Origin: Eledone cirrhosa | Lineage: Eukaryota | Length of the DNA: 64,000 nucleotides | Assembly: GCA_964016885.1 (NCBI GenBank) | Contig: OZ024756.1 | Coordinates: forward strand, 3,038,001 to 3,102,000 | Direction: 5' to 3' | Part shown: piece by piece, positions 9,214-10,531 of the stretch | Layout: every line of letters begins with the position of its first letter | Position numbering within the stretch: position 1 is the first letter of the stretch | Position numbers and translations under genes: made by a program | The notes under the pieces: generated by a model | The model's database searches: none | The model's input: only the letters and a program-made list of their open reading frames with translations | Told to the model about the DNA's origin: nothing

Positions 9214-9324
9214 ATATATATATATATATAAATATAAAAACAAATAACGAAACGAAATTAAATTTCGTTTCGCTTCTAACTCACTTTTGTATGACTGACG
9301 CTTAAACAAGCCGGAGGATGGGTA

Positions 9325-9369
9325 AATATTGCTGATGAGATGTAATAACATCGAAACTAGTCCAATATT
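9325..9369 (+). ncRNA. Minimal type I hammerhead ribozyme
   Basis: AATATTG-CTGATGA-GATGT(AATA)ACATC-GAAA-CTAG-TC/CAATATT. 7-bp stem I, 5-bp stem II, palindromic ACTAGT stem III, GUC site at 9362. Confidence 0.9.
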
Positions 9370-9793
9370 CCTGTCTGGCCCTCTGGTGAATAGAGGAAAT
9401 GTGTTTCCTTGAAAACCCGTATGACTCTAAAACCCGGTCAGTCTGTGTGGTTACATACAGACTAGCTGACACTCACTGTAAAGTGTCTAGTGAAAAGCTG
9501 AGTACATGTACATATGTATACATGTGTGTATTTATATGCATACTAATACTTCCGTATACATATGTAGATGTACACTTTAACTTAATTGTTTAAGCGTCAG
9601 TCATACAAAAGTGAGTTAGAAGCGAAACGAAATTTAATTTCGTTTCGTTATTTGTTTTTATCGTTTCCGCTGAACCGGTGCGTACAATGACTCACGTTCT
9701 ATGCAAATTAGTCTACCCACTACTAATTTTCATAGAAAAAGCATATAACGATATGTGCTTTTACAATTCTCCAGAGAAGCCGGAAGATGGGTA

Positions 9794-9838
9794 AATATTG
9801 CTGATGAGATGTAATAACATCTAAACTAGTCCAATATT
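9794..9838 (+). ncRNA. Hammerhead ribozyme copy with G12U (GAAA>TAAA at 9822), probably inactive
   Basis: Identical to 9325-9369 except CATCTAAACTAG. Confidence 0.75.
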
Positions 9839-10262
9839 CCTGTCTGGCCCTCTGGTGAATAGAGGAAATGTGTTTCCTTGAAAACCCGTATGACTCTAAA
9901 ACCCGGTCCGTCTGTGTGGTTACATACAGACTAGCTGACACTCACTGTAAAGTGTCTAGTGAAAAGCTGAGTACATGTACATATGTATACATGTGTGTAT
10001 TTATATGCATACTAATACTTCCGTATACATATGTAGATGTACACTTTAACTTAATTGTTTAAGCGTCAGTCATACAAAAGTGAGTTAGAAGCGAAACGAA
10101 ATTTAATTTCGTTTCGTTATTTGTTTTTATCGTTTCCGCTGAACCGGTGCGTACAATGACTCACGTTCTATGCAAATTAGTCTACCCACTACTAATTTTC
10201 ATAGAAAAAGCATATAACGATATGTGCTTTTACAATTCTCCAGAGAAGCCGGAAGATGGGTA

Positions 10263-10307
10263 AATACTGCTGATGAGATGTAATAACATCGAAACTAGTC
10301 CAATATT
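10263..10307 (+). ncRNA. Minimal type I hammerhead ribozyme (third copy)
   Basis: Core intact; one stem I mismatch (AATACTG). Confidence 0.85.
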
Positions 10308-10531
10308 CCTGTCTGGCCCTCTGGAGAATAGAGGAAATGTGTTTCCTTGAAAACCCGTATGACTCTAAAACCCGGTCCGTCTGTGTGGTTACATACAGAC
10401 TAGCTGACACTCACTGTAAAGTGTCTAGTGAAAAGCTGAGTACATGTACATATGTATACATGTGTGTATTTATATGCATACTAATACTTCCGTATACATA
10501 TGTAGATGTACACTTTAACTTAATTATATAA

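Follow-up and report, generated by a model that had tools for sequence, protein, structure and literature searches.

A dispersed non-coding hammerhead repeat with insertion footprints resembling those of Penelope-like elements

Background

The closest described systems are the non-LTR retrozymes of animals and the EN+ Penelope-like elements (PLEs). According to the accessible text of Cervera and de la Pena (2020, PMC7229834), animal non-LTR retrozymes carry a type I hammerhead in each short, low-GC, non-coding tandem unit, reach thousands of copies and are highly self-paired, all of which holds for the repeats described here. The weak stem III with a palindromic loop seen in the present families also occurs in axolotl Amex1, and the U-U pair at the base of stem II in our family B also occurs in axolotl Amex2 (PMC7229834). 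Our units, 427-480 bp long across families, fall near the top of the 150-450 bp range of that text or exceed it; retrozyme expression and cleavage are shown there, whereas the present families are known from sequence alone. Mobilisation of retrozymes by PLEs figures in the accessible text of PMC7229834 as a candidate only, and the words 'inverted' and 'microsatellite' are absent from it.

A preprint on frogs (Li, Clavereau, Pollet, bioRxiv 10.64898/2026.07.22.740005) concludes that PLEs drive retrozymes, the direction in which our own evidence points, and its 51-972 bp range of unit lengths includes ours. As far as its available text goes, the evidence in that study is co-occurrence and pseudo-LTR homology in frogs, whereas ours is insertion anatomy; unlike the frog elements, the present families have no pseudo-LTR homology to the one PLE tested. 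Of nine predicted frog retrozymes, only one cleaved in vitro, and the available main text of the preprint contains neither 'tail', 'target site' or 'covari' nor any mollusc.

The available parts of the work on EN+ PLEs (Craig et al. 2021, PMC8557442; Frangieh et al. 2024, PMC11167929) describe several features in common with our repeats: partial tandems, an inverted 5'-truncated arm, a tail at one end, an AT-rich or (TA)n target, and a hammerhead upstream of two start sites. In PLE insertions the inverted 5'-truncated copy adjoins the 5' end, the partial tandems bear a tail of 30-40 bp at one end, and (TA)n targets are found in several PLE clades; non-autonomous, multicopy, head-to-tail PLEs are known in Chlamydomonas as MRC1 (all from the accessible text of PMC8557442). 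When purified, the anole PLE protein introduces nicks into the two strands of AT-rich DNA and begins reverse transcription at two internal RNA sites, which define the tail; in vitro, hammerhead mutants were without effect on insertion and unprocessed RNA was the dominant substrate (PMC11167929, accessible text). The present retrozymes differ from these elements in that they have no ORF, in their full-length hammerhead with an extended stem I as against the minimal PLE type, and in their tails of 50-75 nt as against 30-40 bp (PMC8557442).

Which enzyme mobilises animal retrozymes, and whether or not a circle is the template, are the questions that the families reported here address. The published case for PLEs is built on co-occurrence and homology; here a PLE priming signature is visible at base resolution. 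The class to which the repeats belong, the animal non-LTR retrozyme, has already been described, and the PLE footprints are unusually clear, which makes the mobilisation question directly testable. Searches of open-access text turned up no account of retrozymes with two fixed ends, although such ends may be recorded in Repbase entries, subscription papers or supplements.

Results

Structure of the array

The window, by which we mean the whole stretch of 64,000 nucleotides analysed, lies on contig 17 of a 3.0-Gb animal genome that is rich in microsatellites. An earlier sequence-only reading had proposed a 469-bp hammerhead array beginning at 9233. That array is real, with tandem-repeat analysis of the window placing it at 9308-10525 (period 469, 2.6 copies, 99% matches), and the start at 9233 is accounted for by a 76-nt inverted arm, 9234-9309, that is 100% complementary to 9586-9661. 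What the earlier account missed are the fixed 3' ends and the inverted arms, the most informative feature of these repeats. The parts of the array, which we assign to family A, are as follows.

9212 to 9233, no strand: left (AT)n flank
9234 to 9309, minus strand: inverted arm, unit positions 279-354, with the 'long' end on its outer side and 2 nt shared with the main arm
9308 to 10525, plus strand: main arm of 2.6 units of 469 bp in head-to-tail order, with its 3' end, the 'short' end, at unit position 280
9588 to 9661, plus strand: 74-nt 'tail' lying between unit 280 and unit 354, the two putative start sites of reverse transcription; it recurs at 10057-10130
10526 to 10594, no strand: right (AT)n flank

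The family A unit is non-coding: the ORF list contains no ORF of at least 110 aa in 9233-10525, and neither reverse transcriptase nor GIY-YIG endonuclease coding, which would mark an autonomous PLE, is present in the unit. The 2-kb bins in which the array lies have a GC of 0.33 and 0.30. Judged by its sequence, the element fits the testable criteria of an animal non-LTR retrozyme, with a type I hammerhead in each short tandem unit, no coding capacity, low GC and a dispersed distribution in many copies. By analogy it would also work like a non-autonomous PLE, given its partial tandems with variable 5' truncation, its inverted arm, a tail between two fixed 3' ends, and a (TA)n or AT-rich target. 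The reading that we favour, and hold to be probable, is that the array is a dispersed non-coding hammerhead repeat (non-LTR retrozyme) mobilised in trans by a PLE reverse transcriptase-endonuclease.

Insertion ends

Two sets of family A loci were examined, a top-hit set of 21 including the window and a set of 20 on contig 1 taken in positional order, with one near-duplicate neighbour skipped. Arms end at unit 277-286 or 350-355 in 36 of 38 cases in the top-hit set and in 31 of 35 in the position-ordered set, and an AT-dinucleotide flank adjoins these fixed ends in 35 of 36 and 26 of 31 cases, respectively. Two arms are present at 16 of the 21 and 14 of the 20 loci; where they are, their orientation is tail-out (16/16 and 13/14) and usually there is one end of each type (13/16 and 11/14). 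The 5' ends, by contrast with these fixed 3' ends, are scattered over the whole unit and do not accumulate near the predicted cut (unit 50-60 has 0 of 38 and 2 of 34), and at least two cut sites are crossed by 29 of 38 and 16 of 35 arms. Measured downstream from the cut site, the putative start sites of family A are at 224 and 298 nt, another point of difference from the EN+ PLEs.

Three related families, B to D, were found in the same genome (see below), and the two end sites are homologous in all four, 50-75 nt apart and adjoining (AT)n. Among family B arms with a visible end, 29 of 31 stop at the two sites (4 more ran off the stretch); tallies from the locus rows give 27 of 29 arms for family C and 22 of 35 for family D. 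In both arrays of the window the main arm runs to the short site and the inverted arm to the long site, and in families A and B the short site is predicted to lie in a small hairpin, within its AU-rich loop. Target-site duplications are not resolvable inside (AT)n. One family C copy (L087:1197-1759) is flanked by (CAT)n, not (AT)n.

Inverted arms could also reflect spread by a LINE or at the DNA level. Twin priming gives 5' inversions, and LINE-like ORF fragments are present in the window. The two internal fixed ends, however, occur without poly(A) or a 3' repeat tail, and both arms point outward with 3' ends of their own, a pattern shared by the PLE-like element of this genome; a LINE or DNA-level origin is in our view extremely unlikely.

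Candidate mobilising element

The PLE-like element just mentioned, the one family that a protein search of the genome returned, has an intact ORF of 800 aa and is recently expanded, with 150 scored matches at 99-100% identity. It was examined at 10 loci (L211-L220; for example L212:1839-4241, plus strand), where a unit of about 3.9 kb occurs in tandem and tail-out copies, bears a minimal hammerhead-like motif of its own, and ends at two fixed sites, which lie some 90 nt from each other and at AT-rich repeats, with one of each in all 6 loci where both ends are visible. The PLE identity of the ORF was judged from motifs read by eye and from Atlas look-alikes; the ORF gave no Pfam match, and PDB matches only at E of at least 0.67, none of them credible. 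Three ORF fragments likewise gave no Pfam match. Because this one autonomous PLE family has no significant sequence in common with retrozyme units A-D (best E 0.19), it is a candidate partner only. Short motifs that by eye recur in the PLE tail and in those of the retrozymes were rejected as possible chance. Retrozymes beside a recently expanded, intact PLE-like ORF bring together the RNA, the predicted start sites, the target and a candidate enzyme for an in vitro test.

The model of the 2026 preprint would instead make the units detached pseudo-LTRs of an autonomous PLE, and the arrays by-products of tandem structure and local satellite amplification. Frog retrozymes do match PLE pseudo-LTRs, and 24 of 57 families match a listed TE, according to the available text of that study (bioRxiv 10.64898/2026.07.22.740005); higher-order repeats, moreover, show local amplification, as in the family A-related array at L240 (contig 1, 95619800-95629700), a 7-unit higher-order repeat that is from later local amplification. 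However, at the 41 family A loci examined it is the unit's own two ends and (AT)n that delimit the arms, none of the loci shows a longer element at a fixed 5' position, and the units have no similarity to the PLE examined. A pseudo-LTR origin is in our view unlikely.

Related families

The second array of the window belongs to family B and has the same two-armed plan.

16433 to 21271, minus strand: main arm of family B, comprising 10.1 units (472-486 bp each) and running to the short site, which adjoins (AT)n
21292 to 22239, plus strand: inverted arm of family B, 2.0 units, ending at the long site adjoining (AT)n

Between these arms, at 21272-21291, lie short templated repeats of neighbouring sequence, which suggests slippage on joining of the 5' ends.

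Homology between the 469-bp unit of family A and the unit of about 478 bp of family B had been proposed in the sequence-only reading. It holds up well: all the common motifs listed there occur in order when A is set against the reverse complement of B, and the two units are 61% identical over 428 aligned columns. The alignment is significant outside the ribozyme, with 0 of 1000 dinucleotide shuffles both for the segment from ribozyme to microsatellite (z 5.7) and for the segment after the microsatellite, compared with the reverse complement of B (z 10.6); a wrong-strand control gave z 1.4 and 102 of 1000 shuffles. A genome-wide search for further subfamilies, using patterns that exclude the known stems, added families C and D, making four families in two lineages (A/C and B/D). 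Identities are 89% between A and C, 77-82% between B and D, and 61-63% between the lineages. The earlier description of the family as old thus agrees with the lineage split (61% identity), but not with the family A copies, which are mostly 98-99% identical.

All four families are dispersed, with thousands of copies genome-wide. Unit searches gave 413 matches for family A from the 39 of 810 candidates scored, and 262 for family B from the 40 of 1,943 scored. The family C pattern has 5,349 matches, C-type in 99 of the first 100 listed, and the family D pattern 1,504, mostly D-type among the 100 matches listed. Further exclusion patterns returned mostly point mutants of A-D and some solitary hammerhead-like motifs in unrelated context; the patterns cover in part the class with T then not A after the core, stem III variants lie outside them, and there may be further families beyond A-D. 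Solitary hammerhead-like motifs at nine loci (L123, L125, L127, L129, L130, L132-L134 and L151) have the same palindromic stem III in unrelated context.

Hammerhead ribozymes

A type I hammerhead motif is found in the units of both family A and family B. The three copies in the family A array are listed here.

9316 to 9376, plus strand: copy 1, a type I hammerhead whose core is intact; stem I at 9325-9331/9363-9369, stem II at 9339-9352, CUGAUGA at 9332-9338
9785 to 9845, plus strand: hammerhead copy 2, G12U at 9822, predicted inactive
10254 to 10314, plus strand: hammerhead copy 3, intact core, stem I mismatch at 10267

The elements of a type I core (CUGANGA, GAAA, NUH, three helices and an open-ended stem I) are all found in A copies 1 and 3 and in the B copies, and A copy 2 departs from them at G12. 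Rfam hammerhead models at the gathering score gave 0 matches in the window. In copy 1 the stem III region is palindromic and the predicted cut falls after 9362 (GUC); a palindromic, very short stem III has been associated with dimer cleavage (accessible text of PMC6765202). A UA bulge and a UAANAA loop, candidates for a contact between the stem I bulge and loop II, are invariant in all six aligned sequences, and isolated ribozymes fold weakly better than shuffles (z -1.4 to -3.0).

The earlier observation that one of the three copies carries a G12U core mutation is correct, to which we add the stem I mismatch of copy 3. G12 of the hammerhead is the general base, and copy 2 is for this reason predicted to be inactive; on folding, G12U lengthens stem II by one pair. 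The exact A-type ribozyme pattern has 1,467 matches in the genome, of which 3 differ at G12 and only the window copy is G12U. It is a single private mutation (1 of 1,467) and uninformative on the family.

Further minimal hammerhead-like motifs lie in the window at 15687 (+), 24700 (-), 26611 (+), 28556 (-), 29581 (-) and 40701 (+), those at 24700 and 26611 forming an inverted duplicate.

Covariation and RNA folding

Among six natural sequences from two lineages, double-sided changes are seen at 6 of the 16 hammerhead pairs, and 94.8% of cells are paired, compared with 33-50% in slid controls, counts which on so few sequences and lineages are not probabilities. Three of the double-sided changes are in stem I and two in stem II between the lineages, and one is in stem II between A and C; one stem I change yields G-U, not a perfect complement. 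Alignment confirms the sequence-only reading that both stems differ between the A and B units. Its statement that both stems pair is borne out by the double changes and the overall pairing, but not at the core-proximal pair of stem II. At that position A and C have G-C, B has U-U and D has C-A; in the last two families the pair is broken and not compensated. Compensatory change is likewise real, but as an argument for selection on the ribozyme it draws on few independent events, because the four families fall in just two lineages, and a single templated event could account for the three neighbouring changes in stem I. The covariation, although genuine, is thin; it is what is expected of a retrozyme family, and alone it is of modest interest.

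As a null test, confident pairs of one family were mapped to another and the same substitutions placed randomly. From A to C there are 4 double changes against a null mean of 0.24 (0 of 20,000), and 2 outside the ribozyme (163 of 20,000); from B to D, outside the ribozyme and microsatellite, there are 4 (170 of 20,000) and 5 (27 of 20,000). Double changes between A and B outside the ribozyme are not significant (6 versus 3.9, 3,585 of 20,000; 2,241 of 20,000 in the reverse direction), and many pairs are broken there, partly from poor alignment. Conserved pairing reaches beyond the ribozyme within each lineage. RNAalifold on eight units gave 103 predicted pairs, 28 with a double change; a long-range helix is among the predicted structures.

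9419 to 9606, plus strand: predicted long-range helix, 9419-9426 with 9599-9606, around three hairpins including the AT/GT microsatellite hairpin

Circular monomers gave fold z-scores of -13.9 (A), -12.6 (C), -8.4 and -7.7 (B) and -3.2 (D, one copy) with 40 shuffles each, so that A, B and C exceed their shuffles by far and the D copy by less; the values are inflated by the internal microsatellite palindrome, which in part accounts for the low folding energies.

Paired changes may also come from mutational processes in hairpins, such as template switching by reverse transcriptase or arm-to-arm conversion, and not from selection. They do cluster in adjacent pairs, three in stem I and two in stem II, in an element that is rich in perfect hairpins and has just two deep lineages. 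Against such an origin, double changes across families are also found in 3 of 8 pairs of the long-range helix, whose arms are about 180 nt apart; one stem I change yields the imperfect pair G-U, and the unpaired catalytic core is invariant across aligned families whose lineages are 61% identical. A purely mutational origin is very unlikely in our judgement.

Discussion

Under mobilisation in trans by a PLE enzyme, the reading that we favour, a multimeric transcript would be cut by its hammerheads, probably as dimers via the palindromic stem III loop, and the monomers would be ligated into circles of about 470 nt. The PLE protein would bind the folded RNA and nick (AT)n DNA on both strands, and from each nick reverse transcription would be primed at a different internal position, unit ~280 or ~354. 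Copying would continue around the circle, or else along a multimer left uncut, until each cDNA stopped at random, and their 5' ends would be joined at a short microhomology. Selection, when a variant founds a new family, would act on the ribozyme and part of the remaining fold; inserted copies would then decay neutrally, as G12U may exemplify, and some would amplify locally.

Priming at 280 or 354 on a self-cleaved linear monomer would not yield arms that cross cut sites, and the template is therefore likely to be a circle or an uncut multimer, two cases that genomic ends cannot tell apart. Mobilisation by a PLE could in principle proceed from linear, uncut multimeric transcripts of existing arrays, with no circle and with the ribozyme playing a minor part at insertion. 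The anole experiments outlined above, in which insertion was unaffected by hammerhead mutants and unprocessed RNA predominated in vitro, would favour such a route (PMC11167929, accessible text), and variants found in only some units of an array (window, L033, L035, L221, L239) fit the copying of a heterogeneous multimer. However, the core is invariant and the stems are compensated across lineages that are 61% identical, from which we infer that the ribozyme is needed; moreover, 5' truncation alone would be expected to shrink arrays at each round, whereas a circle would regenerate them. Doubtful as we find the linear route, the within-array variants themselves are mixed and do not decide between circle and multimer: copies 1 and 2 of the window array have a common variant absent from copy 3, variants alternate between units at L239, and at L050 and L045 variants are common to both arms. 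Family A unit position 80 (window 9387 and 9856) varies recurrently in several independent arrays.

Within the PLE reading we put forward, tentatively and as a possibility that we would not yet back, a more specific proposal. A viroid-like circular RNA of about 470 nt, unlike any PLE pseudo-LTR in sequence, may parasitise the PLE enzyme by shape alone, its conserved multi-hairpin fold presenting two internal start sites that keep their position between lineages 61% identical, with the enzyme rolling round the circle from both (AT)n nicks. If this is true, the footprints would be direct evidence for rolling-circle reverse transcription of an animal retrozyme, and the RNA, its start sites and a candidate intact enzyme would all be found within one genome.

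Two other kinds of sequence in the window deserve mention. Reverse-transcriptase-like ORF fragments, of non-LTR type as judged by eye, lie at 32700-33864 and 36375-37583, both on the minus strand. A different repeat lies on both sides of the family A array (7832-8388, 8884-9211 and 10592-11130), in palindromic two-armed copies with unequal arms adjoining (AT)n and with centres at 8177 and 10795; on the plus strand from about 10796 it is hammerhead-like, its stem II being very long and its stem III loop palindromic, and it is probably another non-autonomous PLE-type family.
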